Source: Bacteroidota bacterium (GTDB lineage Bacteria; Bacteroidota; Bacteroidia; Flavobacteriales; Flavobacteriaceae). Taken from it: DNA of 24,000 nucleotides. Position 1 is the first letter of the stretch, and each line of letters opens with the position of its first letter. Positions 3,052 through 19,327 of this stretch are shown here, one piece after another. Under the pieces are notes generated by a model that saw only the letters and a list, made by a program, of their open reading frames with translations, was not told where the DNA came from and did no database searches. Where the stretch lies: positions 41,942 to 65,941 of the forward strand of contig JAYVIW010000080.1 in NCBI GenBank assembly GCA_043769905.1, read 5' to 3'. The translations under genes and the position numbers were made by a program.

Positions 3052-3184
3052 TTTTTTTTGGATAAAAATTACATATATACAAACTGGTTTTACCTAAATT
3101 TTATTTAAATTTTTATTTTCTTAAACACTTCTATATTTTTATAAAATTCTAGAGTTAAAATATTAAATTTTGTTTATAACTAAT

Positions 3185-3997: not shown

Positions 3998-4073
3998 TAG
4001 TATTGATAGAAATTATATGATTTTTTACTGCAAAGGTAATCAAAACGATAAGAAAATGAATTGGCGACATTTT

Positions 4074-4106
4074 AAAAAAATGCTTTTAAGATTAATTCAA
4101 AGCATT
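4074..4106 (-). terminator. Putative rho-independent terminator (minus strand) upstream of rluF
   Basis: 8-bp stem AATGCTTT/AAAGCATT (4079-4086 / 4099-4106) with a 12-nt loop. Read on the minus strand it is followed by a short T run (complement of A4074-4078) and preceded by T15 (complement of 4111-4125). Confidence 0.35.
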
Positions 4107-4542
4107 CTTTAAAAAAAAAAAAAAATTTACTTGTACTTAGTTAACGATTATTTTTTAGCTTGTTATTAAATTATTTGAATCAGTCAAATCTAAAATACAA
4201 ATTTCTGATGTATTGATTGGGTTTATAGCAATTTGATTGTAATTTGACACGAGCAAAATAATTTTATTTTCTAATATTTTTCCCTGAATATGGCATATTT
4301 TTAAATAAACATTGTTTTAAATTTCCTTAAGCATTTATGGATAATAGTCCAGCATTAATTTTGTTACTTGACATCTCTAAATTTCTAATAATGAAGTCGT
4401 TATTGACAAGTGCTGAGAACCTTAAACCTAACCATGAACCAGAAAGACTAACCAGCCAGCGCGACCAGTAGGAACTCCAAAATCATTTTGTCTAAATTAC
4501 AAATGATCAACATTGCCAATTGTATCATTTCATGCTGCGGTT

Positions 4543-4725
4543 TCAGAATTTGCACTTGCTGGCTTGCCACACAACATTGATCGGTTTACACAATTTCGAA
4601 TAACATAGTGGGTTTTTCCAACAATTTTTGTGCAGCAGTGTAACGAGTAAAAATATCCCTAAAACTGCAGAAGCTTGAGAAACAATTGCAAAATTGATAA
4701 ATACTAGAAATGCTATTTTTTTCAT
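4543..4725 (-). CDS. Small (60-aa) predicted secreted/membrane Cys-containing peptide, hypothetical
   Basis: An internal ATG of the 96-aa track ORF gives MKKIAFLVFINFAIVSQASA (signal-peptide-like), then a hydrophobic stretch and four Cys (C-x6-C-x4-C...C). I recognise no homology. Confidence 0.3.
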   Translation of the reverse strand: MKKIAFLVFINFAIVSQASAVLGIFLLVTLLHKNCWKNPLCYSKLCKPINVVWQASKCKF

Positions 4726-4818
4726 GTTGTAATTTTCAAAAAAATAAACTAAAAAATTAATTATTTGAAAAGGCATGATTTTTAATGCAATACAATTACT
4801 TTTACAAAAAAAACGGTT

Positions 4819-6192: not shown

Positions 6193-6438
6193 TCAAAAAA
6201 ATAAATATTTATTTAATTGGCATAATATGTGAGATTTTTTTATTTAAAAATTAAATTCAAGGGTTTTAATACAATTAATATATTCTACAATATAGAAATA
6301 TAATTTCCAAATAATGCATCTATATTGATTTAAATTTTACTTATTCAAATCTGAATTTTCAACTTATAAATATTTACAAAAATTTGTAACATAAAATAAA
6401 AACCAACGTATAATAAATGTAATTTAAAATTTATAAAA

Positions 6439-7347
6439 ATGATACTATTAATTGTTCTAGGTTGTATTTTGTTGTTTGTGGGTTTTACTATTAAAAATAA
6501 TTTTAACAACCCGTTTGCCAAATATTCAAGTGTCTTAAAAATAATTGGCGTTGCAATTATCGGATTAGGCATGTTTTCGGGAATGTTCAAACAAATTGAT
6601 GCCGGAAATGTTGGTGTACAATCGTTATACGGAAACGTGCAAAGCGAAGTTCTCACAAGTGGTTTGAATCTCATAAATCCGCTGATGGAGGTAACCAACC
6701 TAACGATTCAAACTCAAAATTACACCATGTCAGCCATACATAGTGAAGGCGAAAAAGAAGGCGATGATGCTATTAGAGTTTTATCTGCTGATGGTCTTGA
6801 AGTTGTAATAGATTTAACGGTTCTTTACAGAATTTTGCCAGCCGATGCACCGAAAATCATCAGAACTATTGGTATTGACTATACTGACAAAATTGTGAGA
6901 CCAATAACCCGAACGCGCATTCGTGACAACGCAGTTTACTATGATGCTGTGGCTCTTTATTCTACCAAAAGAAACGAGTTTCAACAGCGAATTTTCAAAA
7001 CAATCGAAACTGATTTCAAAACACGAGGTTTGGTACTTGAACAACTTTTGATTAGAAATATCAATTTGCCATCATCAGTAAAGACTACAATCGAAAGTAA
7101 AATCAATGCCGAACAAGATGCTCAAAAAATGCAGTTTGTATTGCAAAAAGAAAAACAAGAAGCCGAAAGAAAAAGAGTGGAAGCTCAAGGAATAGCCGAT
7201 TACCAACGCATTATTTCGACAGGATTGTCCGACAAACAATTGCAATATGAAGCCATTAAAGCTCAAAAAGAATTGGCAGCATCTCCTAATACCAAAATTA
7301 TTTTTATGGGAAAAGGTAACGGATCTGTCATTTTATCTGATAAGTAG
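6439..7347 (+). CDS. SPFH/band-7 (prohibitin/HflC-like) domain membrane protein
   Basis: 302 aa. Two N-terminal hydrophobic segments, an SPFH-like core (IDAGNVGVQSLYGNV...GLNLINPLMEV...), then a charged coiled-coil (EQDAQKMQFVLQKEKQEAERKRVEAQG). Confidence 0.88.
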   Translation: MILLIVLGCILLFVGFTIKNNFNNPFAKYSSVLKIIGVAIIGLGMFSGMFKQIDAGNVGVQSLYGNVQSEVLTSGLNLINPLMEVTNLTIQTQNYTMSAIHSEGEKEGDDAIRVLSADGLEVVIDLTVLYRILPADAPKIIRTIGIDYTDKIVRPITRTRIRDNAVYYDAVALYSTKRNEFQQRIFKTIETDFKTRGLVLEQLLIRNINLPSSVKTTIESKINAEQDAQKMQFVLQKEKQEAERKRVEAQGIADYQRIISTGLSDKQLQYEAIKAQKELAASPNTKIIFMGKGNGSVILSDK

Positions 7348-7427
7348 AATAAAAGACATCAAATATTATTACCTGACGTTTTGTTATTTATATTTAAAAT
7401 TTTAAGTTTAATATCTAATATATAAAA

Positions 7428-7655
7428 ATGGAATTACCAAAATTTTTACTCGGCGACAATACCGATTTTCCCGATGATATTTTCATCATTCATCTTGATT
7501 ATCCTCGTTTTATTATCAATTTAAAAGATGATGAAGTCGAATTTATGGAAGAAGCCGAAGACCTTGACGAAGGTGAACTTAATGCCGAAATGGAAGGTTT
7601 AATAGTGCTTGCAAATGAATTTTATGACCGTGAAATTAGTCTATATGAAGAATAA
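7428..7655 (+). CDS. Small acidic hypothetical protein (75 aa)
   Basis: Clean ORF in an otherwise empty gap with coding-like composition. No domain recognised. Confidence 0.5.
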   Translation: MELPKFLLGDNTDFPDDIFIIHLDYPRFIINLKDDEVEFMEEAEDLDEGELNAEMEGLIVLANEFYDREISLYEE

Positions 7656-7677
7656 ATACAAGAGTTTTTTAAAATTA

Positions 7678-9153
7678 TTATTTAAAAAATTGCTCTAAAC
7701 CAATAGGTAATCTATCGATATACATTTCGTTAGTAAAATCCTGCAAGTCGTTTTCAATATTTTCGAACACTCTTGTAGGATTTTGTCTTAAACCACGGTT
7801 TCTAAAACCTATCAAATCTAAGGCTTTTTTTAACATTGGTTCATTGGCATCTCCCAAAATGCCTAAATTGTCAACGTTTTCTGATAATGTGTTAGATGTT
7901 TGTGGCAACAAACCATTTTCGTATTCGCCAAAATTATCCTTATTAACTATCTTTAAAACGAGTGGTTGCATTGCATATTTGTGATTACGATTTGCACCTG
8001 ATTTTCCAAAATTTGGTGAGTCATATAAGGTTACCGAACCCGCATTTTTGCCAATTGTTTTTGTTCCTATTTGAATAACATCAATATAAGGTTTTAAACC
8101 ATTGATGACCAGCTCACTCGCTGATGCTGTTCTTTCGGTTGTTAAAATATAGACTTTGGATAAATTCAAATGATTAATACCAACTCCAGCAATATTATTA
8201 ACAAAAAAATTGGTCAACGCGTTTGGATTATTAGCCAATAAATAAGTTTGTAATCTTGGGTTCCATTGTTCTTTTGCAAATACTTGACCGTTAAATTGTC
8301 CTGTAATCATGCTCGCCAAATAGGTCGCAGTTTGAATAGAACCACCACCATTATACCGCAAATCAAGAACCAAATCAGTTATGTTTCCTGCGGATAATTG
8401 TCCAATAGCATTATTCAAATCTAAATCAAAATTGGCCGTAAAAGCATTATACATCAAATATCCAATTTTTTTGCTACCTACGGTGATCGATTTGACAATA
8501 TGTATTGGGTTTTCGATCATTTGACTTTTCGTTAATGCTAATGAAACCCCATTTGGAGTGAGTGTTCCGTTCACGAAAGAAGCAAAATTCATAGTATAAT
8601 TATCAGCAGCAAGTAAACTATTTCTGTTAGCCAGAGTTAACGTGGTACCATTTATCGCATAAAAAAGATCACCCCGCTTTACGTTTTTATTGGCCGCATC
8701 AGAATTTGGTAAAACATAACGCACAAAACCAAATATTGGCCCAGAATTACCACTTACATACTTATAATCAGCAGAAATTCCGCTTGTTGTTCTTATTCCT
8801 TGAAACGAATTTTCTAGAATAGAATAATCATCGACAATAATGCTATATTTATCAATTGCTTGATTTGAAGCACCAAAGAGACTTACGGGTTTGTATAACA
8901 AAGATTGAAAAACTTGCTCTGGTGCGCCTTTAGTTTTTAAAAAATCATTTAAAAAAAACGGATTTCCAAAACGCATATCATCTAAATCAGGAACATTTTG
9001 CTGCCATAAATAATAATTGTTCAAACCTTTCCATATAAAATTCTGAACCTCAGTATTTGAGTCCTGAAGTAAATTATCATCATTATCAGTACAATTCACA
9101 AACAATGAGGATACTATCAATCCAAATAAAATATTTTTAAAAGAAAATTTCAT
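7678..9153 (-). CDS. S41-family (C-terminal processing/tail-specific type) peptidase, lipoprotein
   Basis: 491 aa. Lipoprotein signal ending LFVNC. S41 motifs LVLDLRYNGGGS, TTERTASASE (Ser nucleophile region) and GTKTIGK. Confidence 0.85.
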   Translation of the reverse strand: MKFSFKNILFGLIVSSLFVNCTDNDDNLLQDSNTEVQNFIWKGLNNYYLWQQNVPDLDDMRFGNPFFLNDFLKTKGAPEQVFQSLLYKPVSLFGASNQAIDKYSIIVDDYSILENSFQGIRTTSGISADYKYVSGNSGPIFGFVRYVLPNSDAANKNVKRGDLFYAINGTTLTLANRNSLLAADNYTMNFASFVNGTLTPNGVSLALTKSQMIENPIHIVKSITVGSKKIGYLMYNAFTANFDLDLNNAIGQLSAGNITDLVLDLRYNGGGSIQTATYLASMITGQFNGQVFAKEQWNPRLQTYLLANNPNALTNFFVNNIAGVGINHLNLSKVYILTTERTASASELVINGLKPYIDVIQIGTKTIGKNAGSVTLYDSPNFGKSGANRNHKYAMQPLVLKIVNKDNFGEYENGLLPQTSNTLSENVDNLGILGDANEPMLKKALDLIGFRNRGLRQNPTRVFENIENDLQDFTNEMYIDRLPIGLEQFFK

Positions 9154-9174
9154 AGCTACAGTTAAGTTGTGTTA

Positions 9175-9182
9175 CAAAAATA
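9175..9182 (-). promoter_or_regulatory. Bacteroidota-type -7 box (TATTTTTG on the minus strand) for the S41 peptidase gene
   Basis: Matches TAnnTTTG, 22 nt upstream of the ATG at 9153. Confidence 0.3.
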
Positions 9183-9212
9183 ATAAATTTTTATACTATT
9201 TTATTATTATTT

Positions 9213-9238
9213 GTAACAAAAGATAAATACATTCGTCT
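9213..9238 (+). promoter_or_regulatory. ECF-type promoter GTAAC-N16-CGTCT upstream of the ECF sigma gene
   Basis: GTAAC (9213-9217), an exactly 16-nt spacer, then CGTCT (9234-9238). It lies 23 nt before the ATG at 9261 and matches the generic ECF -35 'GAAC' / -10 'CGTC' layout. Confidence 0.45.
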
Positions 9239-9260
9239 TGACTATAACAACGAATTGTTT

Positions 9261-9770
9261 ATGAATCAAAATGATTTTATAAAATTAATAAATCCATTTA
9301 AGCATAAATTGTTTCGCTTAGCAAAAAGGTTGCTTATTAGCACAGAAGAAGCCGAAGATGCGGCTCAAGAAGTGTTAGCAAAATTATGGAATAAGAACGA
9401 AAGTTTAGAAAAATACAGCAGCATTGAAGCATTTGCAATGACAATGACAAAGAATTATTGTTTGGACCAATTAAAAGCAAAACGGTCAAGTAATTTGCGA
9501 ATTATTGATGATAATTTTGATGACCATCAAGCAAATTTGCAACAAAAACTAGAAGATGAAGACAGCTTAAATTGGGTTGCAAAGATAATGAACAATTTGC
9601 CTGAACAGCAAAAACTGATTGTTCAAATGAGAGAAATAGAACAATACGAATTTGAAGAAATTGCCGAAATTCTAAAAATGAATCCAACAGCAGTAAGAGT
9701 TGCACTATCGAGAGCCCGAAAAACTATTAGAGAAGTAATGGACAAAACACACGATTATGGAACCAAATAA
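9261..9770 (+). CDS. RNA polymerase ECF-type sigma-70 family factor
   Basis: Region 2 (EDAAQEVLAKLW) and a region 4 HTH (YEFEEIAEILKMNPTAVRVALSRARKTIRE). I prefer the ATG at 9261 to the TTG at 9255 used by the track. Confidence 0.9.
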   Translation: MNQNDFIKLINPFKHKLFRLAKRLLISTEEAEDAAQEVLAKLWNKNESLEKYSSIEAFAMTMTKNYCLDQLKAKRSSNLRIIDDNFDDHQANLQQKLEDEDSLNWVAKIMNNLPEQQKLIVQMREIEQYEFEEIAEILKMNPTAVRVALSRARKTIREVMDKTHDYGTK

Positions 9771-10203
9771 AATAGCCGTTTTATTAGAAAAATATTTTGA
9801 TGGAACAACGACAATTGACCAAGAAAAACAATTGAAAAATTATTTTTGTTCTGAAGGTGTAGCGCAACATTTACAGCAATATAAGTATATTTTTCAATAT
9901 TTTGAGAATGAGAAACAAGTAGTATTTGACAAAAAAATTCAAATAAAATCACAAACTAAAATTGTTTGGTTTTCAATGGTCGCAACTGTAATATTGCTAT
10001 TTGGTTTGGCTGCATTTTATTTAATCAATCACAATTCTGCAAGTCCCGAAAAAAGTTTTGGAAGTTTTCAAAATCCCGAAATTGCATTTGAAGAAACACA
10101 AAAAGCGCTGCAAATGATATCGAATAATGTGAATGTTGGCATCAATAGTGTGGCTTATATAAATGAATATCAGAATACTAAAAATAAAATTTTTGTAGAA
10201 TAA
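9757..10203 (+). CDS. Putative anti-sigma factor (single-pass membrane protein)
   Basis: Overlaps the sigma gene stop by 14 nt. The N-terminus LLEKYFDGTTTIDQEKQLKNYF is typical of Bacteroidota ECF partner proteins. One TM segment (IVWFSMVATVILLFGLAAFYLI). Confidence 0.5.
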   Translation: MEPNKIAVLLEKYFDGTTTIDQEKQLKNYFCSEGVAQHLQQYKYIFQYFENEKQVVFDKKIQIKSQTKIVWFSMVATVILLFGLAAFYLINHNSASPEKSFGSFQNPEIAFEETQKALQMISNNVNVGINSVAYINEYQNTKNKIFVE

Positions 10204-10244
10204 TCAAATTAAAAATTAATTAAAAACATTTAAAATCAAATATC

Positions 10245-10769
10245 ATGAAAAAATTCATCATAACATCAGCATTAATAATTGTATCAAATTTATTTTTTGG
10301 ACAATCTGTTTTCGATAAATTTGATGGTCAAGATAACGTAACATCGATAATTGTTAACAACAAAATGTTCGATTTAATGAGCAAAGTAAAGGTTGACGAA
10401 ACAGATAAAGAAAGTCAGCAATACATTAAACTCATCAAAAAACTTGACAATCTAAAAGTTTTTGTAACCACCAATAATAAGGTGGCAGCCGAAATGAAGC
10501 ATTCAACAGATGGTTTTTTAAAAACTACTAAACTAGAAGAATTAATGCGTGTAAATGACAGCGGTCGAAATGTAAAAATTTACGTAAAATCGGGTGCATC
10601 AGATTCTCAAATCAAAGAATTATTTATGTTTATTGAAGGTTCGGGCAAAGAAAACCAGACTGTTGTAATGTCATTGACAGGCGATTTTGACCTCAACGAG
10701 TTATCGGCTTTGACCAACAAAATGCATTTGCCAGGTGGCGATGTTTTGAAAAAAGCATCTAAAAAATAA
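10245..10769 (+). CDS. DUF4252 domain-containing protein (secreted)
   Basis: 174 aa with a signal peptide. The pattern FDKFDGQDNVTSIIVNNKMFDLMSKV...IKLIKKLDNLKVF and the position downstream of the ECF sigma/anti-sigma pair fit DUF4252. Confidence 0.7.
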   Translation: MKKFIITSALIIVSNLFFGQSVFDKFDGQDNVTSIIVNNKMFDLMSKVKVDETDKESQQYIKLIKKLDNLKVFVTTNNKVAAEMKHSTDGFLKTTKLEELMRVNDSGRNVKIYVKSGASDSQIKELFMFIEGSGKENQTVVMSLTGDFDLNELSALTNKMHLPGGDVLKKASKK

Positions 10770-10774
10770 TTGTT

Positions 10775-11311
10775 ATGAAAAATTTAATGTTAGCATTTGC
10801 AATATTTAATTTATTGTTAGCTGGCTGTAACAATAATAAAAGCTTAGAAAAATATTTTGTTAACAATACCAATAACCCAAACTTTATTCAAGTTGATGTT
10901 GCACCAAGTATTTTAAATCTAAATACAACACAACTTACAGAAGAGCAGAAAACAGCTTTACAATCATTTAACAAAATGAATGTTTTGGCTTTTAAAATAA
11001 ATGACAAAAACAAAGCCCAATTTGGACAAGAAAGAACCAAAGTCAATGAAATTTTAAAAAACGAAAAATACCACCAATTGATGAAATTTGGTTCTGGGAA
11101 AGAAGTAGCATCAATTAGCTTTGTTGGCGAAGACGAACATATATCAGAATTTATCATTTTTGGAAACAAAGCGGATAAAGGATTTGCAATTGTCCGAATT
11201 TTGGGGCAAGACATGAACCCAAGTTCGATTATGACAATTGTTTCGGCAATGCAAAATTCAAAAATGGACATTGAGCAATTGATACCGATTATAGAAATAA
11301 TGAAACAATAA
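10775..11311 (+). CDS. DUF4252-like lipoprotein
   Basis: 178 aa with lipobox LLAGC. Same general layout as the preceding gene (FIQVDVAPSILNL...LQSFNKMNVLAF). Begins 5 nt after the previous stop. Confidence 0.65.
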   Translation: MKNLMLAFAIFNLLLAGCNNNKSLEKYFVNNTNNPNFIQVDVAPSILNLNTTQLTEEQKTALQSFNKMNVLAFKINDKNKAQFGQERTKVNEILKNEKYHQLMKFGSGKEVASISFVGEDEHISEFIIFGNKADKGFAIVRILGQDMNPSSIMTIVSAMQNSKMDIEQLIPIIEIMKQ

Positions 11312-11340
11312 AAGTATAAAAGTGAGGTTAGTTAGAAAGG

Positions 11341-11370
11341 ACGTTTGCAAATTTTGCAAGCGTTTTTTTT
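11341..11370 (+). terminator. Rho-independent terminator of the ECF/DUF4252 operon
   Basis: 10-bp stem ACGTTTGCAA/TTGCAAGCGT (one G:U pair), a 3-nt loop, then a T8 run. Starts 30 nt after the stop at 11311. Confidence 0.7.
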
Positions 11371-11402
11371 ATGTTTATTTTCTAGGAAACGATTAAGGTA
11401 AT

Positions 11403-11440
11403 AAAAAAAAAAAAAAAAAAACAGTGCTGACACTGGTTTT
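11403..11440 (-). terminator. Displaced native terminator of tRNA-Leu (hairpin + T19 on the minus strand)
   Basis: On the minus strand the distal att repeat is followed by GGAATAAATTAAAAAC, then the hairpin CAGTG-TCAG-CACTG (11422-11435), then 19 consecutive T (the plus-strand A run 11403-11421). Confidence 0.5.
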
Positions 11441-11451
11441 TAATTTATTCC

Positions 11452-11466
11452 GTGACCACGGTGGGA
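11452..11466. repeat. attL-like direct repeat GTGACCACGGTGGGA (distal copy of the tRNA-Leu 3' end)
   Basis: Perfect 15-bp identity with 19125-19139. Flanking bases differ on both sides. Confidence 0.75.
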
Positions 11467-11605
11467 ACACTATAATACAAATTCACTATAAACTTGAAAT
11501 ACCACTGATACTTCTTAAAAGCCAATAAATTCAATATACATTTAGCAATACAAACATAATAAATGTTTCGATTAGTTTGTTTTAAATTGTATATATTTTA
11601 ATTTT

Positions 11606-11624
11606 ATCGTACATTAATCGTACA
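11606..11624 (+). repeat. Tandem ATCGTACA motifs with 11-bp periodicity (candidate integrase arm-type sites)
   Basis: ATCGTACA occurs at 11606-11613 and 11617-11624. The 11-mer TAATCGTACAA (11615-11625) recurs identically at 19057-19067 near the other island end. Confidence 0.4.
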
Positions 11625-11631
11625 ATATTTA

Positions 11632-11639
11632 TATATTTG
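11632..11639 (+). promoter_or_regulatory. Bacteroidota-type -7 box (TATATTTG) upstream of the integrase gene
   Basis: Exact TAnnTTTG match, 20 nt upstream of the ATG at 11659. Confidence 0.35.
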
Positions 11640-11658
11640 TATTTTCAATATTTTAAAT

Positions 11659-12930
11659 ATGGCAACTGTTAATTTTCTTTATCGTTCAACTAAAAGCAAA
11701 GCATTTTTAATCGTTCGGTTATTATATCGTTACGAAAACCAAGATTTCGTTTTTGGTGCAAATACTAAATTTGAAGTTTCAAAAGAATACTGGAGCAAAC
11801 AACACAAACAAAAACGTCCAAAAGACATTGAAATAAGCAATAAACAAACCGAAGTTAATGCTGAACTTAACAAAATTGAAAATTATATTTTAAGTAGTTT
11901 CAATAAATACAGTCCTGATGCTATAAATAAAAAATGGCTCGAAACTGAAATTGGATTTTTTTACAATCCCCAAATAGAAAATAAAACCGAAAAAATACCG
12001 ATTAATCTCGTTGAATACTTTGATTATTACATAAAACACAAAGAAAACTATCCAAGTGTTGTTTTAATTAGAAAAATAAATGTTCTAAAAAAGAAAGTTC
12101 AACGGTTGCAAAATTTTAGAAATAAACCAATTTTGATAAAAGATGTAAACAAACAATTCAAAAAAGAATTCGCTGATTATTGTGAGAAAGAAAAATACAG
12201 TAGAATTACAACCCAAAGAGATTTTGCAGAAATAAAAACAATATGTTTAGATGCACGTTCCAAAGGAATTGAAACAAGTTTAGAATTAGACAAATTGAGT
12301 TTCCCTCGCGAGAAAACAACAAATATATATTTAACCTTTGACGAATTGGAATTCATACAAAACATTGATTCTGTGAAATTAACTGAAAGTTTGAACAATG
12401 CAAAAGATTGGTTAATAATTTCTTGTTTTACAGGTCAAAGAGTTTCAGATTTTATGCGTTTCAATACCAATATGATACGTTATGAAAATATAAAAGGAAC
12501 TGACAAGGCTTTTATTGAATTTACTCAAAAGAAAACTAATAAAATAATGACTGTTCTTTTGCACCCGAAAGTTATAGAAATTTTAGAAAAAAGAAATTTT
12601 ATGTTTCCGAATCCTATTTCGTCCCAAAAATACAATGACTACATCAAAGAAGTTTGTAAATTAGCGGGCATAAATCAAACCATTACAGGAAGTAAAAAAA
12701 TCGAAACTGAACCCAACAGCAAAGAGTACCGCAAACAATCTGGAACATTTGAAAAATGGAATTTAGTTTCAAGCCATATAGGAAGACGCTCTTATGCAAC
12801 TAATTTTTATGGAATAATTCCAGATACTTTTTTGATGAATGTTACAGGACATACAACTCAAGCAATGTTCCTTTCCTACATTGGCAAAAGCAATAAAGAT
12901 ATTGCAGTTGGGATGGCTGATTATTATTAA
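11659..12930 (+). CDS. Site-specific tyrosine recombinase (phage integrase family) with an N-terminal arm-type DNA-binding domain
   Basis: 423 aa. The N-terminus MATVNFLYRSTKSKAFLIVRLLYR is typical of Bacteroidota integrase arm-binding domains. The C-terminal catalytic region has TGQRVSDF (Arg), SSHIGRRSYAT (His-x-x-Arg), VTGHTT (His) and FLSYIG (Tyr). Confidence 0.92.
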   Translation: MATVNFLYRSTKSKAFLIVRLLYRYENQDFVFGANTKFEVSKEYWSKQHKQKRPKDIEISNKQTEVNAELNKIENYILSSFNKYSPDAINKKWLETEIGFFYNPQIENKTEKIPINLVEYFDYYIKHKENYPSVVLIRKINVLKKKVQRLQNFRNKPILIKDVNKQFKKEFADYCEKEKYSRITTQRDFAEIKTICLDARSKGIETSLELDKLSFPREKTTNIYLTFDELEFIQNIDSVKLTESLNNAKDWLIISCFTGQRVSDFMRFNTNMIRYENIKGTDKAFIEFTQKKTNKIMTVLLHPKVIEILEKRNFMFPNPISSQKYNDYIKEVCKLAGINQTITGSKKIETEPNSKEYRKQSGTFEKWNLVSSHIGRRSYATNFYGIIPDTFLMNVTGHTTQAMFLSYIGKSNKDIAVGMADYY

Positions 12931-12947
12931 ACTAAAGATTAAATATA

Positions 12948-13379
12948 ATGAATGAAGAAATAAAAGCATTAGTCGAATTTGCAAAAAATAGTAAAAATTC
13001 AACAAACTCAAAGTTACAAATTAATGTAGTTGATGAAAATGAAGCCGAATTTTTAGAACTAAAAACTGGTTTTAAATTATTGGGATATAAAAGAATTATT
13101 GATAAATTTAGCATCAATCACACGCTTAAAAATCACGGAAATATTAAAACAGAAGCATTGCGAGGTCAAATTGCTATTACCGACGAAGATTTTGAATTGA
13201 TACCAGAAATAATGCTTTCTAAAAACATAATTCACGCCAGTAAAAACAATATGGGTAATGATTTGATACTTTATGAAGCCATAATAGAAAACACTTTTTA
13301 TTATGTAGAAGAAGTTAGAAAAGGCAAAAAAGAACTTTGTATGACAACAATGTATAAAAGAAAACCAACCACTTTATAA
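12948..13379 (+). CDS. Hypothetical protein; possible BECR-fold (PBECR-like) RNase domain
   Basis: 143 aa, beginning 17 nt after the integrase stop. The segment INHTLKNHGNIKTEALRGQIAITDEDFELIPEIM...YYVEEVRKGKKEL resembles, from memory only, the H-x3-K-x-HG...RGQ-x-I-T core of phage-associated Barnase/EndoU/ColicinE5-D/RelE-like domains. Confidence 0.55.
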   Translation: MNEEIKALVEFAKNSKNSTNSKLQINVVDENEAEFLELKTGFKLLGYKRIIDKFSINHTLKNHGNIKTEALRGQIAITDEDFELIPEIMLSKNIIHASKNNMGNDLILYEAIIENTFYYVEEVRKGKKELCMTTMYKRKPTTL

Positions 13380-13558
13380 AAAAATAGTTGGTTTAAAAAT
13401 CAACGAGTTATGCTCAATTTCACCTACTCCTTACGCCCGAAACGTACTTTGATTATACAAAGATAATTATAATAACCTAAAAACAAACAACCTAACTAAA
13501 TATTTAACATTTTTTAGATTTAAACCCATCAAAACAAACTAACTATTAAATAAATCTT

Positions 13559-14527
13559 ATGATTAACGATTTTTGGAAAAACCCTAAAGTAGCAGAATAT
13601 CTTTTTTACGACACGGTCGGTATTGACAGAATAGTTGAGAAATATGGTGAATGTACAAATGATTATGAAATTAAGATTGAATATATGATTGTTGATATTT
13701 CTCTTCAATTAAAAAAAGATATAATTATAGATATTACAAGAGAAGAATATGATGATTTTATTGAAGTTCCTCAAAGAAATGTTAATCGTTGGCATAGTAT
13801 AGAATATGATGACTTTAAGGATGTTTTTAGCAATAATTTATTTACGGAGGATTTGAGATTACATATAGTTCCAAATACACAGTCAGATTTTATTTTATTA
13901 GTAAATGAGACTTTTTATAATTTTAATTTTGAAAGTCAAGCAAAAATATTTTTTAGAGAATTAATATCATATTTAACAAGATGTAAGCATCTTTTAAATC
14001 AAAATGATGCAATTTTTCAAAAAAATCCTATTCAAGAAATAGTATCAAATATTTATTCTGAAAATTATTTGGATACTATTCAAAAAATTAAAAACAATTA
14101 TAAATTAATATTTCCAGAAATAGAAAATAATTTTGGAATAGATTTAGAGATTCAAGAAACATATTCAGTATATGGTAAAATGAATAAATTTCAAGAATTA
14201 AACGAAATAAAAAAAGAAATAGATGAAAGTAGAATTTGGTTTAAAGTTGGACTTTTATTGGCAAAAGGAGAAATTCAAAAATTTATTTTGGATAATCCAA
14301 ATATAAGTTTTCCTAAAATTGCAAAGCATTTTAAAAATGAAAGTTATGAAGTATATATCAAATCAACATTACAAAATTATACTACGTCGAATACAGATAA
14401 AAACATTTACTTACATATTCATAAAATGGATTCGATTATAAAATATTGTAATTCTAATAAAATTGAAATTTGCAACGATTTTAAATTAAAATACAAAGTT
14501 CAATCTGAAAAACAGTACTTGCAATAG
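13559..14527 (+). CDS. Hypothetical protein (322 aa), no recognisable domain
   Basis: Long uninterrupted ORF in extremely AT-rich DNA, where random frames close quickly. Rich in Asn/Ile/Lys. No signal peptide or TM segment. Confidence 0.6.
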   Translation: MINDFWKNPKVAEYLFYDTVGIDRIVEKYGECTNDYEIKIEYMIVDISLQLKKDIIIDITREEYDDFIEVPQRNVNRWHSIEYDDFKDVFSNNLFTEDLRLHIVPNTQSDFILLVNETFYNFNFESQAKIFFRELISYLTRCKHLLNQNDAIFQKNPIQEIVSNIYSENYLDTIQKIKNNYKLIFPEIENNFGIDLEIQETYSVYGKMNKFQELNEIKKEIDESRIWFKVGLLLAKGEIQKFILDNPNISFPKIAKHFKNESYEVYIKSTLQNYTTSNTDKNIYLHIHKMDSIIKYCNSNKIEICNDFKLKYKVQSEKQYLQ

Positions 14528-14605: not shown

Positions 14606-14896
14606 ATGAATACACAAGCAATCCAGTTCCTTCAGACGACTCCCGAGCAACTATCGGAGCAAATTTTCAACAATGTAAAAAGTCTTTTATTAGACTTCAA
14701 AAAATCATTATCAATTCCAGACCCAAACGAGTTGATGAGTAGGTCGCAAGTTTGCGAATATTTACAAATTGACAGTTCTACGCTTTGGACTTGGACAAAT
14801 AAAGGCAAAGTAAAAGCCTACGGAATAGGAAACCGCAGGTATTACAAGAAAAATGAGTTATTGCAATGTTTAATCCCTTTAAAAACAGTTGCATAA
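14606..14896 (+). CDS. Helix-turn-helix DNA-binding protein, excisionase/AlpA-like (HTH_17-type)
   Basis: 96 aa. The C-terminal half LMSRSQVCEYLQIDSSTLWTWTNKGKVKAYGIGNRRYYKKNELLQCL follows the pattern of MerR-superfamily excisionase-like HTH proteins common on Bacteroidota mobile elements. Confidence 0.75.
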   Translation: MNTQAIQFLQTTPEQLSEQIFNNVKSLLLDFKKSLSIPDPNELMSRSQVCEYLQIDSSTLWTWTNKGKVKAYGIGNRRYYKKNELLQCLIPLKTVA

Positions 14897-15819
14897 TGAT
14901 AGATAATGTAAGATTACAAGTCCTAAACAAAGAAAATTTTGAAAATCATATTATCAAAAACAATGTTGTTGATTTAGTATCGCCTTTAAACACTTTTACA
15001 GGCGAAATAAACGAAAGTAGCAAAAAAGGAAAAGAACGCAACCTAGAGGTTAGAATTACGCCATATCAAGCCGTAATATTCGGTAGTTTGCATAAATATG
15101 AAAATCTTTGCAATGGAGAAACAAATCATAATTACAATGATTTTAGCTACAACCAAATCAAAGAATTAATCCCGTTTTTAACCGAACTTTTTGACATAGA
15201 AAACAATACATCATTAACCAATCTTGAAATGGGTTTTAATCTCGATTTAGACATTAGTCCAAAGTTAATAATAGATAATAATGTTTTGATGTACGACTTG
15301 AAAAGTGCTAATAAAGATTTAAAATTCAAAGGTCGTGGCGATTACAAAGAGTTTCAGAAAACTGACTATATTCTAAAGATTTACAGCAAGTCCAAACAAT
15401 ATAATCTTAAAAATCATTTAATTCGGGTTGAAATAAAAATCACTAAAAAAAGGAAATTACAAGATTTAGGAGTTTTTGAATTAGAAGATTTGTTAAATAA
15501 AGAGGTTTTACTTAATATTTTTAATTTCTTACTTAACGAATTTCAAAAAGTATTTATAATTGACGATTTCGATAATGTAAAAATCCTGATTAAAGATTTA
15601 GAAAAACTCAATAAATACACAAACCCAAATTACTGGATTAGAATAAGAAATGAAAAATCTTATAAAATTACAAAACGGTTAGAAAATGATTTTAAACTAT
15701 TGATTCGTAAATACAATTTAGGTAAAACTAAAAAAGAATTAAAGGACAAATTAGTACTCAAATTTAGTAGTTTAATGAATACCAATAATACCGATTTAGA
15801 TTGTAATAGTAAACTGTAA
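14896..15819 (+). CDS. Hypothetical protein; possible replication-initiation protein (gene II/X or Rep_trans-like)
   Basis: I prefer the start at the ATG overlapping the upstream stop (TAATG at 14894-14898). The N-terminus MIDNVRLQV, GSLHKY...NHNYNDFSY, LEMGFNLDL, KIYSKSKQY and LIRVEIKITKK are reminiscent of phage/plasmid replication initiators. This is a weak call made from memory. Confidence 0.55.
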   Translation: MIDNVRLQVLNKENFENHIIKNNVVDLVSPLNTFTGEINESSKKGKERNLEVRITPYQAVIFGSLHKYENLCNGETNHNYNDFSYNQIKELIPFLTELFDIENNTSLTNLEMGFNLDLDISPKLIIDNNVLMYDLKSANKDLKFKGRGDYKEFQKTDYILKIYSKSKQYNLKNHLIRVEIKITKKRKLQDLGVFELEDLLNKEVLLNIFNFLLNEFQKVFIIDDFDNVKILIKDLEKLNKYTNPNYWIRIRNEKSYKITKRLENDFKLLIRKYNLGKTKKELKDKLVLKFSSLMNTNNTDLDCNSKL

Positions 15820-15852
15820 AAGGGATAAAATGCAAACTATAATACAAACAAC

Positions 15853-15884
15853 AAACCCGCCTAATTTACTAGCGGGTTTTGTTT
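15853..15884. terminator. Bidirectional terminator hairpin between convergent island genes
   Basis: Stem AAACCCGC (15853-15860) / GCGGGTTT (15872-15879) with an 11-nt loop. T-rich tracts follow it on both strands. Confidence 0.6.
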
Positions 15885-16660
15885 TATATTAAATTATCGT
15901 CTTCTAAATTTTCTACAAGGTCTGAATATCTAATTATAAATTTTCTTGCTAACTCAAATGATTTTTGTAATCCTAACAAATTTGAATGTGAACCACCATT
16001 TAATAAAATTTTATGACATTTTTCAGTCTCCAATACAATTTCTTTTGCAATTACTTCCATTTTTTCATTTATATTATCATATGTAATTCTAACACAACAT
16101 AATATAATCTCTTTTCTTATTAATATTAATTTGTCTACATTTCGTATATCATCATATAATAAAATATGGTCAATCTCTTTAAAATAACTTTCTATAATAT
16201 CATTTAGTTCTTCTAAACATTCTTCTACTTTAGGTGAATATTTTTGCTGTTGAAATTTATTTATTACAGATTTACCTAAATTGACTCTTGAGAATATTAT
16301 GTTATTTACTAAATTACTATGATTAATAATTTGCAAACTGTCTAATTGTGATTCCAAAATCATAGTCAACTTATTTTTATTAATTTTATCGACTACTTCA
16401 AATACTTTGTCTCCGCTAATATTTAAATATGGTCGTTTTGCTAGAAAGTAAGATTTTTTAGAATTAGTTCTGTGAGTAAATATTTCAATTTCTTCCCCAA
16501 GTCTAAATACTTTATGAATTAAGGAAACACTAATTTTTTCCATATTATTTACTTCTACCTGATTGCTTATTATTTCAAAATTTCCTTCAAAATTGAAATT
16601 AGCAATAACTTTGGTATCATCGGGTAAATATCCTAATGTTCTTTTAAGAGATTCAAACAT
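15884..16660 (-). CDS. Hypothetical cytoplasmic protein (258 aa), last gene of the minus-strand cassette
   Basis: Long ORF in DNA of roughly 20% G+C. No TM segment or signal peptide, and the C-terminal half is predicted helical. No motif recognised. Confidence 0.62.
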   Translation of the reverse strand: MFESLKRTLGYLPDDTKVIANFNFEGNFEIISNQVEVNNMEKISVSLIHKVFRLGEEIEIFTHRTNSKKSYFLAKRPYLNISGDKVFEVVDKINKNKLTMILESQLDSLQIINHSNLVNNIIFSRVNLGKSVINKFQQQKYSPKVEECLEELNDIIESYFKEIDHILLYDDIRNVDKLILIRKEIILCCVRITYDNINEKMEVIAKEIVLETEKCHKILLNGGSHSNLLGLQKSFELARKFIIRYSDLVENLEDDNLI

Positions 16661-16718
16661 ATAAAATTTGTTTAAGATTTAGGTAAAATAAACTCATAAA
16701 AAATTAATGCGATTGCTT

Positions 16719-16895
16719 TCACTTTTCGTTAACTATCCATTTAATCAATGATTCTGCATCATTAATAACTATACTAAAAGAACCATTTTTATTGATTACT
16801 GAAAGTAGCATTGTAATAACAAGTAGAAAAGGCACAACTGTAACAGTTAAAAACAATCTTAACAACACATACATTAAAGTTACAATATCTTTCAT
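16719..16895 (-). CDS. Unannotated small membrane protein (58 aa), below the ORF-track size cutoff
   Basis: Manual translation gives MKDIVTLMYVLLRLFLTVTVVPFLLVITMLLSVINKNGSFSIVINDAESLIKWIVNEK*. The ATG at 16895 lies 2 nt after the TPR gene stop (16898-16900). There is one clear TM segment. Confidence 0.5.
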   Translation of the reverse strand: MKDIVTLMYVLLRLFLTVTVVPFLLVITMLLSVINKNGSFSIVINDAESLIKWIVNEK

Positions 16896-16897
16896 AC

Positions 16898-17320
16898 TTA
16901 TTTACAAAATTTACTATAACCTGAACAGCCATTATTATCGCCATTATCACAAGCCAATTTTAAATATTTACAACAATTTGCCATATCATTTTTTTTGCCA
17001 TAAACTATTCCGCATTTTAACATTGCTTCCGAATTATTTGGATTTAATTGCAAGGCTTTTTTATAACAAGTTAAAGCAACATCATAGTTGAGTTTCTTTT
17101 GATAAATAACACCTTTTGTATAATAAGCGTTTGAGTTGTTTGATTCAATACTTATTGACTTGTTGATGTAAATAATTGCATTATCTAAATCGTTCGTTTC
17201 AATTGAATTAACTGCGGATTTATAATAAGTTTCAGCAATTGAAGTTTTTTTTGTCTGTGAATTAACGTTGTAACTTATAACAAGCAATATTATATATATT
17301 GAATTTATTATTGATTTCAT
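16898..17320 (-). CDS. Secreted tetratricopeptide (TPR)/Sel1-like repeat protein with a Cys-rich C-terminus
   Basis: 140 aa. Signal peptide MKSIINSIYIILLVISYNVNS. TPR-like repeats (NAYYTKGVIYQKKLNYDVALTCYKKALQLNPNNSEA). The C-terminal KLACDNGDNNGCSGYSKFC resembles the Cys-bracketed Sel1-like repeats of Helicobacter Hcp proteins. Confidence 0.78.
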   Translation of the reverse strand: MKSIINSIYIILLVISYNVNSQTKKTSIAETYYKSAVNSIETNDLDNAIIYINKSISIESNNSNAYYTKGVIYQKKLNYDVALTCYKKALQLNPNNSEAMLKCGIVYGKKNDMANCCKYLKLACDNGDNNGCSGYSKFCK

Positions 17321-17334
17321 TTTATTATTTTTAA

Positions 17335-17730
17335 TTATGATACAAATAACTCTGAATATTGACGGTTAAAAATTTTTTCAATAGATTGATTAATTTCGTT
17401 TTGGGTCAATCCCAATATGTAACCCATTTTAGGTAAATGTTTGTATGTTATTTCTTTAAAATTTACAAACCAATCTTGAAGCATTATTGCAAATAGTGGA
17501 TTGTCAGTATCCATATTGTAACCTTCACTTTTTAAAAGTAATATGTGTTCTTTTAGACCATTATCGAACGAATCTTTTATCATCCATTCAAATTTATCAA
17601 GATTTATTTTGTGATTCTTATCAGGTAGAAAAAAATCATTATTATTTTTTGGATTTGGTTCATTTGAATTAACTTTAAAAAACAAGTATATTAAAAAAGC
17701 AACAATTGAGATTCCTAAAATTTGTAACAT
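17335..17730 (-). CDS. Hypothetical N-terminally membrane-anchored protein (131 aa)
   Basis: N-terminal TM segment LQILGISIVAFLIYLFF followed by a soluble domain. Ends 14 nt before the TPR gene start. Confidence 0.6.
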   Translation of the reverse strand: MLQILGISIVAFLIYLFFKVNSNEPNPKNNNDFFLPDKNHKINLDKFEWMIKDSFDNGLKEHILLLKSEGYNMDTDNPLFAIMLQDWFVNFKEITYKHLPKMGYILGLTQNEINQSIEKIFNRQYSELFVS

Positions 17731-17757
17731 AAGATTTAGTTAAGTGTGTTTTTCAGT

Positions 17758-18168
17758 CTAAAAAAAGGGGGTTGTGCCTTTATATTTTTCATAAAATTTT
17801 TCGTTAAAGTTATCTATTGACAAGTCAATCGAATTTAGTATATACTGTTGGTCATCATTACTGTTGAATTTCCATTTTATATTATGAGAATCTACAAGAT
17901 TTTTCATTGTCCATATTATATTCAAATCATTAAATGCTTTTACAATGTGAAATTCTACATATACTCCCTTACCCCTTGCTGAAAGGGTAACAGAATTATT
18001 AGTTCTATTAGTAACGCTCATCTCATAATCCTTTTTAAGAGAGTTAATTAAATAGCAATACCTGTTTTCAAGTCCGCCATCATTTTTAATTTGTGTTATG
18101 TCCTTGTTAAATGCCTTGTTAAAATTAAATAAAAAAAGAATAACTACTAATGCTAAAAATATCCACAT
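17758..18168 (-). CDS. Hypothetical N-terminally membrane-anchored protein (136 aa), first gene of the cassette
   Basis: N-terminal TM segment MWIFLALVVILFLFNF followed by a probably beta-rich soluble domain. Ends 27 nt before the next gene. Confidence 0.6.
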   Translation of the reverse strand: MWIFLALVVILFLFNFNKAFNKDITQIKNDGGLENRYCYLINSLKKDYEMSVTNRTNNSVTLSARGKGVYVEFHIVKAFNDLNIIWTMKNLVDSHNIKWKFNSNDDQQYILNSIDLSIDNFNEKFYEKYKGTTPFF

Positions 18169-18225
18169 AATTTTTGATTTTAATTAATATTTCAACAAAA
18201 ATAAACTTCTATAAATTCATTACTT

Positions 18226-18239
18226 TACGGGAAACCGTA
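18226..18239. promoter_or_regulatory. Palindrome TACGG-GAAA-CCGTA in the divergent XRE/cassette intergenic region (candidate operator)
   Basis: Perfect 5+5 inverted repeat with a 4-nt spacer. It is the only G+C-containing element in the 165-bp divergent promoter region. Confidence 0.25.
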
Positions 18240-18333
18240 TTGAAACGATATTTTTTAAATATTTTTAAAATATAATAAAAATTGGGAGCGAATACGCTTT
18301 CAAATGATTTTTATTTCTTATCGACCTTTGAAA

Positions 18334-18561
18334 ATGATTTCAGGGCAAACTTTTATAGAAAATTTAGGAATCCATATACGGCAAATAAGAGAACGGAAAA
18401 ACCTTTCGCAACAAAATTTAGCCGATATGTGTAACTCGCCTAAATCTACAATTGCAAGAATAGAAAGAGCCGAAATGAATACATCTATAAAAACGCTTGT
18501 AAAAATTGCAAATGCTTTAGAAATTAAGCCAAAAGAATTGTTAGATTTTCAAATAAAATAA
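18334..18561 (+). CDS. XRE-family (cI/Cro-like) helix-turn-helix transcriptional regulator
   Basis: LGIHIRQIRERKNLSQQNLADMCNSPKSTIARIERAEMNTSIKTLVKIANALEIKPKELL is a canonical HTH_3 pattern. The start at 18334 gives a typical length; 18304 is the alternative. Confidence 0.82.
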   Translation: MISGQTFIENLGIHIRQIRERKNLSQQNLADMCNSPKSTIARIERAEMNTSIKTLVKIANALEIKPKELLDFQIK

Positions 18562-19056
18562 TTTTTACAGTTCAGCAAACACAACCACATACTAAACGGC
18601 TATAATCTATTAATTTACAGAAGTTTATAATTTCTTCAAACAGTCTTTATACGATATAATAGCATATATAAAGCATTATTTTAACATAGCATTTTAGTAT
18701 GGTTAATCCATATCTTTAAACCTAACGACATAATTAACATAGGAAATAAAATTATCTGTTATTCTTTTTGCTGTGCGGATTATTAATTAATATTTGTTAA
18801 TCAAATCCTTATAAGCCAATTTTAACTATAATTAACAACTTGCATAAATAACTAAAAAATTACAAGTGTATATTACTCCCGATAGTCCCAACATTGTTGC
18901 TGGACGTGTAGCAGTTTCTTTGGAGGACACCCCACTAATTTATTTGAAAAGATATTTGATAATTTCATTTTATTTTTTTTGGGGAAATATTTTTTAAAGT
19001 TTATTTTAAAGCTATGTTTATTGACTAGAAAAAAGCAAAAGCCATCAGTAATACAA

Positions 19057-19067
19057 TAATCGTACAA
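19057..19067 (+). repeat. Third copy of TAATCGTACAA (candidate integrase arm-type site at the tRNA-proximal end)
   Basis: Identical 11-mer to 11615-11625 in the same orientation, 58 bp inside the attR repeat. Confidence 0.4.
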
Positions 19068-19070
19068 ATA

Positions 19071-19119
19071 CTGAAAATAAAAAATCCTAACAACTTACCT
19101 ATAAAGTTATTAGGATTTT
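19071..19119 (-). terminator. Island-encoded rho-independent terminator immediately downstream of tRNA-Leu
   Basis: 16-bp stem AAAATCCTAACAACTT (19081-19096) / AAGTTATTAGGATTTT (19104-19119) with one mismatch and the 7-nt loop ACCTATA. On the minus strand it begins 6 nt after the tRNA 3' end and is followed by TTATTTT. Confidence 0.6.
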
Positions 19120-19124
19120 ACAAA

Positions 19125-19139
19125 GTGACCACGGTGGGA
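19125..19139. repeat. attR-like direct repeat GTGACCACGGTGGGA (within the tRNA-Leu 3' end)
   Basis: Perfect 15-bp identity with 11452-11466. Covers the 3' acceptor strand and part of the T stem of tRNA-Leu. Confidence 0.75.
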
Positions 19140-19208
19140 TTTGAACCCACACGCCCTTACGAGCACCAGCCCCTCAAGCTGGCAAGTCTACCGTTTCTCC
19201 ACGTGGCC
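19126..19208 (-). tRNA. tRNA-Leu (anticodon GAG), class II with a long variable arm
   Basis: Manual fold of 83 nt: acceptor GGCCACG/CGTGGTC (one G:U), anticodon stem CCAGC/GCTGG with loop TTGAGGG, variable arm TGCTCGTAAGGGCGT, T arm GTGGG-TTCAAAT-CCCAC. CCA is not encoded. Confidence 0.9.
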
Positions 19209-19254
19209 GAGACTTTAAACATAAAAAAAAAGTCATTCATTACGAACGACTTTG

Positions 19255-19327
19255 TGACCCGACTGGGGCTCGAACCCAGGACCCCATCATTAAAAGTGAT
19301 GTGCTCTACCGACTGAGCTATCGAGTC
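19255..19327 (-). tRNA. tRNA-Lys (anticodon TTT)
   Basis: Manual fold of 73 nt: acceptor GACTCGA/TCGGGTC, D arm GCTC-AGTCGGT-AGAGC, anticodon stem CATCA/TGATG with loop CTTTTAA, T arm CTGGG-TTCGAGC-CCCAG. Confidence 0.9.

Follow-up and report, generated by a model that had tools for sequence, protein, structure and literature searches.

The DNA analyzed here, a stretch of 24,000 nucleotides (nt) from a Flavobacteriaceae genome (assembly GCA_043769905.1, contig JAYVIW010000080.1; hereafter the window), carries five small open reading frames (ORFs) packed on the minus strand and divergent from the gene of an XRE-family helix-turn-helix (HTH) regulator. In the order of transcription, the first gene of the presumed operon, A (17758–18168), encodes 136 amino acids (aa) with an N-terminal transmembrane (TM) anchor and a ~115-aa domain, and B (17335–17730, 131 aa) encodes an N-terminal TM anchor and a C-terminal domain of ~90 aa. 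C (16898–17320, 140 aa) is a predicted secreted TPR protein (TPR_2, E = 1.7e-13) with a Cys-rich C-terminus. D (16719–16895, 58 aa; hydrophobic residues 5–33), which begins 2 nt past the C stop, is a putative TM peptide unverified as a gene, and E (15884–16660, 258 aa) is a soluble protein with a predicted small N-terminal β-barrel (residues 1–130) and an atypical helical C-terminal half. The ORF list reproduced exactly the five ORFs, their sizes, the gaps of 27 (A–B), 14 (B–C), 2 (C–D) and 58 nt (D–E), and the 165-bp region between A and the XRE start at 18334 that had been given in a preliminary description made from the sequence alone. The extreme AT richness noted there was borne out as well, with a GC content of 24.6% in the cassette vs. 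32–35% in the flanking chromosome and ~33% in the genome.

By hydropathy, A and B have N-terminal anchors, C begins like a signal peptide, D has one long hydrophobic stretch and E has no hydrophobic segment, in agreement with the earlier picture of mostly envelope-associated proteins with a soluble fifth member. All five proteins are singletons at 90% identity and were found only on the handful of contigs that bear the same locus. The cassette ends at a hairpin (15850–15883) that is stable on both strands (−13 and −14.7 kcal/mol, z about −3.6) and is kept in sibling loci, among them L035 and L009, where it likewise lies 3′ of homologues of the backbone protein u317 (see below). The bidirectional terminator proposed before is thus recovered as a two-way terminator hairpin at the left border of the cargo slot; its 11-nt loop kept it out of a consensus terminator scan.

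The cassette was described as island-borne, and both ends of an island were found. A 15-bp direct repeat, GTGACCACGGTGGGA, a perfect copy of the tRNA-Leu 3′ end, marks the left end (attL, 11452–11466, plus strand), and local alignment placed its second copy at the 3′ end of tRNA-Leu(GAG) itself (attR, 19125–19139, plus strand). The repeat was found by local alignment of the two presumed junctions and was absent from the top 20 families of a repeat scan; it occurs only twice within the window, with 0 copies expected by chance. The two copies of this repeat delimit an island of 7,673 bp (25.8% GC, with flanks of 32% and 35%). To the right of the cassette lie the genes of tRNA-Leu(GAG) (19125–19208) and tRNA-Lys (19254–19327), both on the minus strand; the Rfam search returned these two tRNAs only, with no credible match in the spacer between XRE and attR. 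Within the repeats, a 423-aa tyrosine integrase (11659–12930, plus strand; Phage_int_SAM_5, E = 1e-8; weak match to the Phage_integrase catalytic domain) is 28–46% identical to the integrases of sibling elements. These sequence features identify an integrative element with a tyrosine integrase inserted at tRNA-Leu(GAG), whose actual excision and integration are presumed.

The XRE gene (18334–18561, plus strand, 75 aa) matched HTH_3 (PF01381) at E = 1.6e-15 (57.3 bits vs. a cut-off of 23), which upheld its earlier assignment, and the 75-aa form is the form kept in relatives. Its best PADLOC match, "Control_protein" (E = 7.9e-16), is generic and at the HTH level. A genome scan anchored on XRE yielded 46 loci (about 37 in Flavobacterium or Flavobacteriaceae); genes were called in the loci and all proteins clustered. 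The regulator is 57–88% identical in about 37 Flavobacteriaceae loci, with a ratio of nonsynonymous to synonymous substitution rates (dN/dS) of 0.095. XRE and the DNA upstream of it form a block that is 70–84% identical in about 40 loci: ~85 nt before the XRE start are kept whatever the first cargo gene is, and the similarity ends just past CAAATATA. This motif, which reads TATATTTG on the cargo strand, was kept in 25 of the 28 tabulated loci, and there are two near-variants, the window included. On the cargo strand, TATATTTG agrees with the sigma-A −7 consensus TAnnTTTG mapped in Flavobacterium psychrophilum (PMC9723704). The corresponding element of the window (18267–18274), which is −7 promoter-box-like and faces the cargo, reads TATATTTT on the minus strand.

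Between this element and XRE lies a 22-bp palindrome, TTGGGAGCG-AATA-CGCTTTCAA (18282–18303), a putative XRE operator present in a single copy in the window. In each of the 28 loci examined, its centre lies 41.5 nt upstream of the XRE start codon (ATG). The palindrome occurs in at least six sequence variants in which both arms changed together, and six of its eight pairs change on both sides. Arm co-variation left 81% of the cells complementary, compared with 68% in column shuffles (0 of 500 reached the observed value) and 28–45% when the partner was slid. At the level of sequence, conservation across about 28 Flavobacteriaceae loci lies in the XRE gene and its 85-nt control block, not in the cargo. 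The control region common to XRE and cargo, kept in about 28 loci, is consistent with the earlier view of the cassette as repressor-linked.

These data suggest that (i) the cassette occupies a variable cargo slot on a 7.7-kb tRNA-Leu element; and (ii) this slot is gated by a module of XRE, operator and promoter. We consider this account of the architecture and its regulation probable. An XRE dimer would bind the palindrome, at the place expected for the −33 element of the cargo promoter, and in this way gate the A-to-E operon and, probably, its own gene. Transcription of the cargo would end at the 15850–15883 hairpin.

The slot is found in related elements. In about a dozen loci, XRE is divergent from a tight same-strand run of small, mostly singleton genes, a run that is different in each sibling, and homologues of the integrase, of the HTH_17 protein and of the backbone proteins u317 and u322 of the island are often near XRE. 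The closest sibling is L040 (integrase 46%, HTH_17 43% and u317 48% identical), and L055 shares u317 (45%) and u322 (36%). The tRNAs that sibling elements abut are varied (Leu, Phe, Arg, Gly/Leu, His, Met and Ala). In about two dozen Flavobacterium loci (L012–L034 and L038; e.g., 9674–10225 in L012), XRE and its operator are paired with a conserved 77-aa protein that is encoded divergently and belongs to no known family. The chromosomal site is fixed, by tRNA-Leu(TAG) and an M20-peptidase-like gene. These loci are flanked on either side by variable small genes and usually have no integrase, and the same tRNA-Leu(TAG)/c4 site holds a full element in L005. The loci of the 77-aa gene look like domesticated or decayed element remnants that still act as a variable spot. 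On the contig L035, from a metagenome-assembled genome, the integrase, HTH_17 and XRE-type genes are each present twice, close together (1950–6116 and 5679–13595), which suggests tandem accretion of related elements or element parts at one site.

The five genes had been presented as one system, and they could form a single co-evolved anti-phage system, acting by exclusion or abortive infection, with interdependent parts. Their tight spacing, single strand and one terminator favor such a system, as does the presence of A, B and E together in two elements, the window and L004. The 9-kb contig L004 carries an integrase that is 31% identical to that of the window, while its XRE is 88% identical; the genes divergent from XRE encode two lipoproteins and then, in this order, a relative of E (57% across the N-domain), a short protein resembling B and a relative of A (61%), without C and D. 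L051 carries C (67%), then a 375-aa protein with a B-like C-terminus, then A (60%), and L052 carries B then A. Adjacency of A and B was observed in four of four contexts, in the order B then A everywhere except in the window; the overall order is A-B-C-D-E in the window, E-B-A in L004 and C-B-A in L051. TPR proteins of the C type adjoin XRE in L036, L037 and L040 without A, B or E. The E family occurs without A, B and C in L056, L057, L060 and L062. L062 has an XRE with 68% identity, and E is its immediate divergent neighbor. The expected co-occurrence of the five genes thus largely failed to appear. Sequence comparison reveals a mosaic of independently assorting units and not one fixed system, because only the A–B adjacency recurs, C and E assort independently, D is unique and gene order is not kept.

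Library scans and relatives of the single proteins were also compared. A, B, D and E gave nothing credible in Pfam, NCBIfam, PHROGs and PADLOC, and A, B, E and u317 gave nothing significant in sequence searches of the PDB, so that the remark that no family beyond TPR is recognizable held throughout these scans. No system model of PADLOC-DB v2 matches any of the five proteins; A reached a CARF model at E = 0.0017 (49 residues) and C a pAgo model at E = 0.05, and both matches are negligible. The families of A, B and E are very rare: among 5.8 billion clusters, an indexed search turned up a single relative for E and two for A, and nothing for B. A has three known relatives only (L004, L051 and L052; 60–63% identity, dN/dS 0.12–0.23). 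The C-terminal domain of B recurs in L051 (33%, at the C-terminus of the 375-aa protein), L052 (47%) and L004 (35–38%), always beside A. C scored 50 bits with TPR_2 (cut-off 27), also matched TPR_8, TPR_11 and TPR_1, contains seven cysteines and has a dN/dS of 0.11; its designation as a TPR/Sel1-like, Cys-rich protein stood for the TPR and Cys parts, and the Sel1 match was below threshold (17.8 vs. 30.7 bits; E = 0.005). Relatives of C are 67% identical in L051 and 40–44% identical in L036, L040 and L037. No further contexts of A and E were found in IMG/VR and JGI metagenome contigs, and the eight-sequence E alignment was too divergent for a pattern scan.

An exhaustive HMMER search of 1.84 billion representatives yielded seven relatives of E, all of which matched residues 1–130 only. 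These relatives are ~210 aa long and share a C-terminal region that is missing from E258 (the 258-aa form of the window), and its C-terminal half is atypical for this reason. The dN/dS of the N-domain is 0.27. Since dN/dS is 0.11–0.27 against the few relatives of each, A, C and the E N-domain are under purifying selection and hence genes, not chance ORFs. AlphaFold (AF2, eight sequences) predicted a small all-β barrel for the E N-domain, with a confidence score (pLDDT) of about 90, and a helical C-terminal half with a score of <50. A Foldseek search of the N-domain against the PDB returned nothing at E ≤ 0.001. The top weak match was the barrel of Cap15 (PDB 7n35, E = 0.038, TM-score 0.56 on the target), with LolA, lipocalins, fatty-acid-binding proteins and Ran-binding domains close behind, and in BFVD one marginal, unnamed phage protein matched. 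We read the predicted fold as a small, possibly ligand-binding barrel and go no further. Cap15, a CBASS membrane effector with a cyclic-dinucleotide-binding barrel, resembles the E family in this weak fold match and in the N-terminal TM anchor of P0023, a 345-aa E-domain protein of L055. It differs in that E258 has no TM segment, the island has no cyclase domain and the fold match is below significance.

The E-type domain often lies beside a small TM protein or is TM-anchored itself (P0023 in L055, L056, L057 and L060, and D in the window). Membership of the small TM neighbors in L056 and L057 in the B family was rejected (hhalign probability <1%). P0023 had appeared to be an A::E fusion (hhalign 72%, 35 columns), and this match was lost with an A-family profile without the TM helix; on this comparison P0023 is a TM-anchored E domain, and its A-like N-terminus is a hydrophobic-helix artefact. 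The TM company of E and the Cap15-like ligand-binding barrel as its best, weak fold match speak for one interdependent system. Against it stand the uniqueness of D, the separate occurrence of C and of E, the gene order, the absence of a PADLOC match, TM neighbors of E that are not B homologues and the rejected fusion, and we regard a single five-gene system as highly improbable. The cassette holds mosaic ORFan cargo, not a new system, and the five genes give a caution: a shared regulator and tight spacing do not make a system.

To describe what the slot carries, we pooled 86 proteins from the sibling arrays and from the neighbors of A and E relatives. About four fifths of them have no Pfam family. 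The recognizable families were TPR (3), SHOCT (3), trypsin-like (2), PP2C (2) and DUF4468 (2), with single matches to GH25 lysozyme, ParE toxin, LRR, PEGA, DUF6804, DUF2188, DUF2158 and TIR/SEFIR; none of the 86 matched a Pfam family recognized as immunity-type. PADLOC identified bSEFIR (E = 9.4e-98) in L040, in the same distal position as E258. As PADLOC lists it, bSEFIR is taken here to be a validated system. The pooled arrays also matched the candidate systems PDC-S16 (8e-33) and PDC-S45 (6e-8), two matches recorded at the level of the pool and not recovered in a scan of 10 candidate proteins. The conflict-system architecture suggested in the preliminary description is therefore borne out in part: sibling slots hold conflict cargo (bSEFIR, the two PADLOC candidates and ParE), and the five proteins of the window have no PADLOC match.

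Two observations concern single occupants of the slot. Lipoproteins with the motif HPP(A/S/T)WIQGTW, a family without a Pfam entry, were present in the arrays of four elements (L004, 2031–2444; L036, 9492–9902; L055, 9578–9982; L007, 8204–8659), usually as the first or second gene, and are the most widely shared cargo observed. In L010 (7503–7978), adjacent genes for 54 and 111 aa resemble an antitoxin/ParE-type toxin module; the ParE_toxin match itself was recorded at the level of the pooled scan.

Several points weigh against a gated slot that carries protective cargo. On the side of regulation, the −7 box of the window, TATATTTT, is without the consensus G. The palindrome could be an RNA hairpin (−10 kcal/mol, z = −4.6, with a T-rich stretch after it) or terminator-like, and co-variation of the dyad does not separate an RNA hairpin from a protein operator; repression, promoter and operon structure are inferred from the sequence. 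On the side of the cargo, none of the five proteins matched a defense, immunity or exclusion family in the family-library scans. The alignable stretch of B (55 codons) has a dN/dS of 0.68. Whether D is a gene is doubtful: no relative was found in any locus or database searched, and at such AT content chance could well produce an ORF of its length (an estimated ~20 per 24 kb in six frames), which leaves its operon position and its hydrophobicity to speak for it. An envelope bias of the arrays, which speaks for the slot account (66% envelope-type proteins vs. 33% of size-matched background ORFs from the same loci; Fisher p = 8e-7), was measured with a crude hydropathy heuristic and against a background that includes unverified ORFs. 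Beyond one protease-domain match, ~3 of the 86 array proteins matched PADLOC at E ≤ 1e-5, and "defense" describes a minority of the recognizable slot content.

The arrays might alternatively hold orphan immunity genes, each product neutralizing one toxin of a competitor, as in acquired interbacterial defense (AID) and its recombinase-associated form rAID-1 (Ross et al., 10.1101/471110). The general look matches the rAID-1 description: in both cases small, co-oriented, low-GC and hypervariable genes reside in Bacteroidota on horizontally transferred elements with a tyrosine recombinase. Many of the array proteins are targeted to the periplasm, toxin-type domains (PBECR3 and Fic) are found on the same elements, and independent assortment is expected of single-gene immunity factors. 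With 24.6% GC and five genes, the cassette lies within the low-GC bounds of rAID-1 (at most 41%, with at least two co-oriented genes), which do not discriminate in a genome of ~33% GC. The recombinase of rAID-1, in contrast, is XerD-like, 5′ and co-directional, whereas the integrase of the window is 3 kb off, on the other strand and convergent with the array; another published criterion is at least 44% identity to BF9343_RS08045 (10.1101/471110). No integron-like repeated intergenic sequence separates the genes of the window (gaps of 2–58 nt), 0 of 86 array proteins fall in a recognized immunity-type Pfam family, and XRE control is not a described feature of rAID. In all, three of the four testable published rAID-1 criteria gave results at odds with it, and bSEFIR, ParE, PP2C, trypsin-like and GH25 proteins are not immunity proteins. 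We therefore judge the orphan-immunity explanation unlikely.

The same slot contents bear on a role in adaptation to a niche or surface (adhesion, colonization or stress tolerance), without conflict. Two thirds of the array proteins are envelope-targeted, TPR, DUF4468, PEGA and LRR proteins and lipoproteins dominate the recognizable fraction, and nothing ties the five proteins to phages directly. Extreme turnover and rarity (3–7 relatives in billions), however, better fit arms-race genes, and the defense and toxin genes listed above occupy the same slot and element, which makes niche cargo quite unlikely. Finally, the genes could serve the element itself, in membrane transfer, in entry exclusion against sister elements or in replication control, with XRE as the master switch. 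XRE is the best-conserved gene of the family (88% where the integrase is 31%), and the backbone has no recognizable transfer or replication gene of its own. Core functions should nevertheless be conserved, yet the cassette is the most variable region; the operator is single-copy in the window, and the operon of integrase, HTH_17 and u317 is thus no obvious target of XRE. Service to the element is the least probable of the explanations considered.

With the gated slot as the preferred account of the architecture, a role can be proposed for its content. A and B would be a membrane-anchored pair, their soluble domains probably in the cytoplasm by the positive-inside rule, given lysines after the TM helix and none before it. 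C would be periplasmic; E would be cytoplasmic and may work with a small TM partner, possibly D. Most likely, the cargo would act at the envelope to shield the host, and with it the element, from phages, from other incoming DNA or from the toxins of competitors, because of what the same slot carries in sibling elements. Within the architectural account, a protective role of these five proteins (exclusion, defense or immunity) is tentative, a serious possibility that we do not place above its negation, and phage exclusion by the cassette is a function that we infer. A bolder version would make the XRE/operator/promoter block a portable "expression dock" that takes up single genes and small modules in exchange for others, and A + B, and E with its small TM partner, new envelope modules of phage exclusion or abortive infection in the slot that also takes bSEFIR; we hold this to be doubtful. 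If it is true, anchoring on XRE gives a direct way to mine dozens of new Bacteroidota defense genes.

The slot of the island is best read as a repressor-gated accessory slot analogous to the P2/P4-type defense hotspots (PMC9122126). In both, a small element with a conserved backbone brackets a fast-turnover slot in which known anti-phage genes (bSEFIR in L040) are mixed with many genes of no known function. The island has no sequence relation to P2/P4, belongs to another phylum, has no phage or plasmid relatives and differs in that its slot has a dedicated XRE, operator and promoter and most occupants are small envelope proteins, not defense systems that can be recognized. Ltp, a lipoprotein, is encoded by a superinfection-exclusion gene in the lysogeny module of Streptococcus thermophilus phage TP-J34 (PMC3952083). 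The membrane-anchored or lipoprotein products of Ltp-type morons, proposed to be expressed when integrated, also lie beside a repressor and an integrase. In contrast to these, the cargo shows no PHROGs homology to Ltp or other superinfection-exclusion proteins, and the island has no phage structural, lysis or replication genes.

The regulator itself invites a further comparison. The C proteins of restriction-modification systems bind palindromic "C-boxes" and gate a toxic partner gene. XRE is alike in its size (~75 aa), its XRE-type HTH, the palindrome just upstream of its own gene and the PADLOC "Control_protein" match, which is at the general level of the HTH_3 fold family. The island differs in having no restriction endonuclease or methyltransferase domains, and its regulated genes are divergent from XRE and not co-transcribed with it.

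As an insertion site, tRNA-Leu has a precedent. The element NBU1 integrates at a tRNA-Leu gene, in its 3′ end. Flavobacteriales also have small islands that target tRNA genes, such as the Riemerella anatipestifer 10K genomic island (PMC6764341). The island of the window resembles such elements in its size class (7–10 kb), its tyrosine integrase, its insertion at a tRNA 3′ end with direct repeats and its small HTH protein of the excision type. Its att repeat has 15 bp, against 53 bp in the comparison, and the island of the window has no recognizable relaxase or primase. Literature searches returned no description of the element family or of an XRE-gated slot. Small tRNA islands and defense hotspots are kinds already known; the element family with its XRE-gated slot is previously undescribed.

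The family is compact and easily recognized by tRNA insertion, integrase, HTH_17, two backbone genes of no known family and the conserved XRE with its operator. The XRE/operator block can serve as a search anchor to collect slot contents and to prioritize ORFan families such as A + B and the E domain. For new protective functions at the envelope, A + B and the family of the E domain are reasonable candidates, in a phylum whose anti-phage and anti-competitor genes are poorly charted outside gut Bacteroidales. Phage therapy is under exploration against major fish pathogens of the genus Flavobacterium. The operator variants, each paired with a closely related repressor, offer a natural series for the divergence of HTH specificity.

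The remainder of the island is a backbone on the plus strand. Next to the integrase, a 143-aa protein (12948–13379) carries a PBECR3 nuclease domain (PF18812, E = 1.1e-18), a Barnase/EndoU/colicin-like domain for which no obvious antitoxin was identified. Fic proteins take the equivalent position in sibling elements (L004, 8271–9035; L005, 13928–14998), and by this comparison the position beside the integrase is a second variable slot, holding toxin-type domains. It is followed by u322 (13559–14527, 322 aa; no known family), with relatives in L055 (36%), L007, L008 and L040, and by a 96-aa HTH_17 protein of the excisionase/AlpA type (14606–14896; PF12728, E = 1.7e-10; excisionase PHROGs), present in all sibling backbones. 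The last backbone gene, u317 (14866–15819, 317 aa; no known family), is 45–49% identical to relatives in L040, L035 and L055 and gave no match in Pfam, the PDB or phage and plasmid collections. The first 31 nt of u317 (14866–14896) lie within the end of the HTH_17 gene; with the start chosen by other gene callers, 10 codons downstream (307 aa), the overlap would shrink to 1 nt of the ATGA type, which suggests translational coupling.

Family scans revealed no recognizable transfer, mobilization (relaxase) or primase/replication gene in the island backbone. No phage structural, packaging, lysis or replication gene was found in the island, where the PHROGs matches are to the regulator and the excisionase only. 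The island and its proteins had no match in 50,697 phage records (blastn and tblastn) or in 72,556 plasmid records.

At the right end, a hairpin lies directly downstream of the tRNA 3′ end (19081–19119, minus strand; 16-bp stem, −17.2 kcal/mol, z = −6) and terminates the element; the att-proximal ~70 nt are kept beside different tRNAs in L009 and L040. Between the XRE stop and attR (18562–19124, ~560 nt), no credible ORF was found, and a GC-richer patch lies near 18866–18940; this spacer could hold attP arm sites or a small RNA. Outside the repeats lie housekeeping genes: the left flank encodes an extracytoplasmic function (ECF) sigma factor and two DUF4252 proteins, and the right flank a shikimate kinase and a phosphoribosyltransferase. 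The genes at 9255–11311 (the ECF sigma factor, a 148-aa protein of no family and the two DUF4252 proteins) make up a typical Bacteroidota operon of the envelope-stress type, unrelated to the island. Between this operon and the island, 30 nt outside attL, lies a run of 19 A's (11403–11421), a slippage-prone homopolymer; a second homopolymer, of 15 A's, is at 4111–4125. A 24-nt inverted repeat (92% complementary) links a terminator-like segment outside attL (11344–11367) to the most conserved part of the XRE coding region (18489–18512), and may be due to chance in AT-rich DNA.

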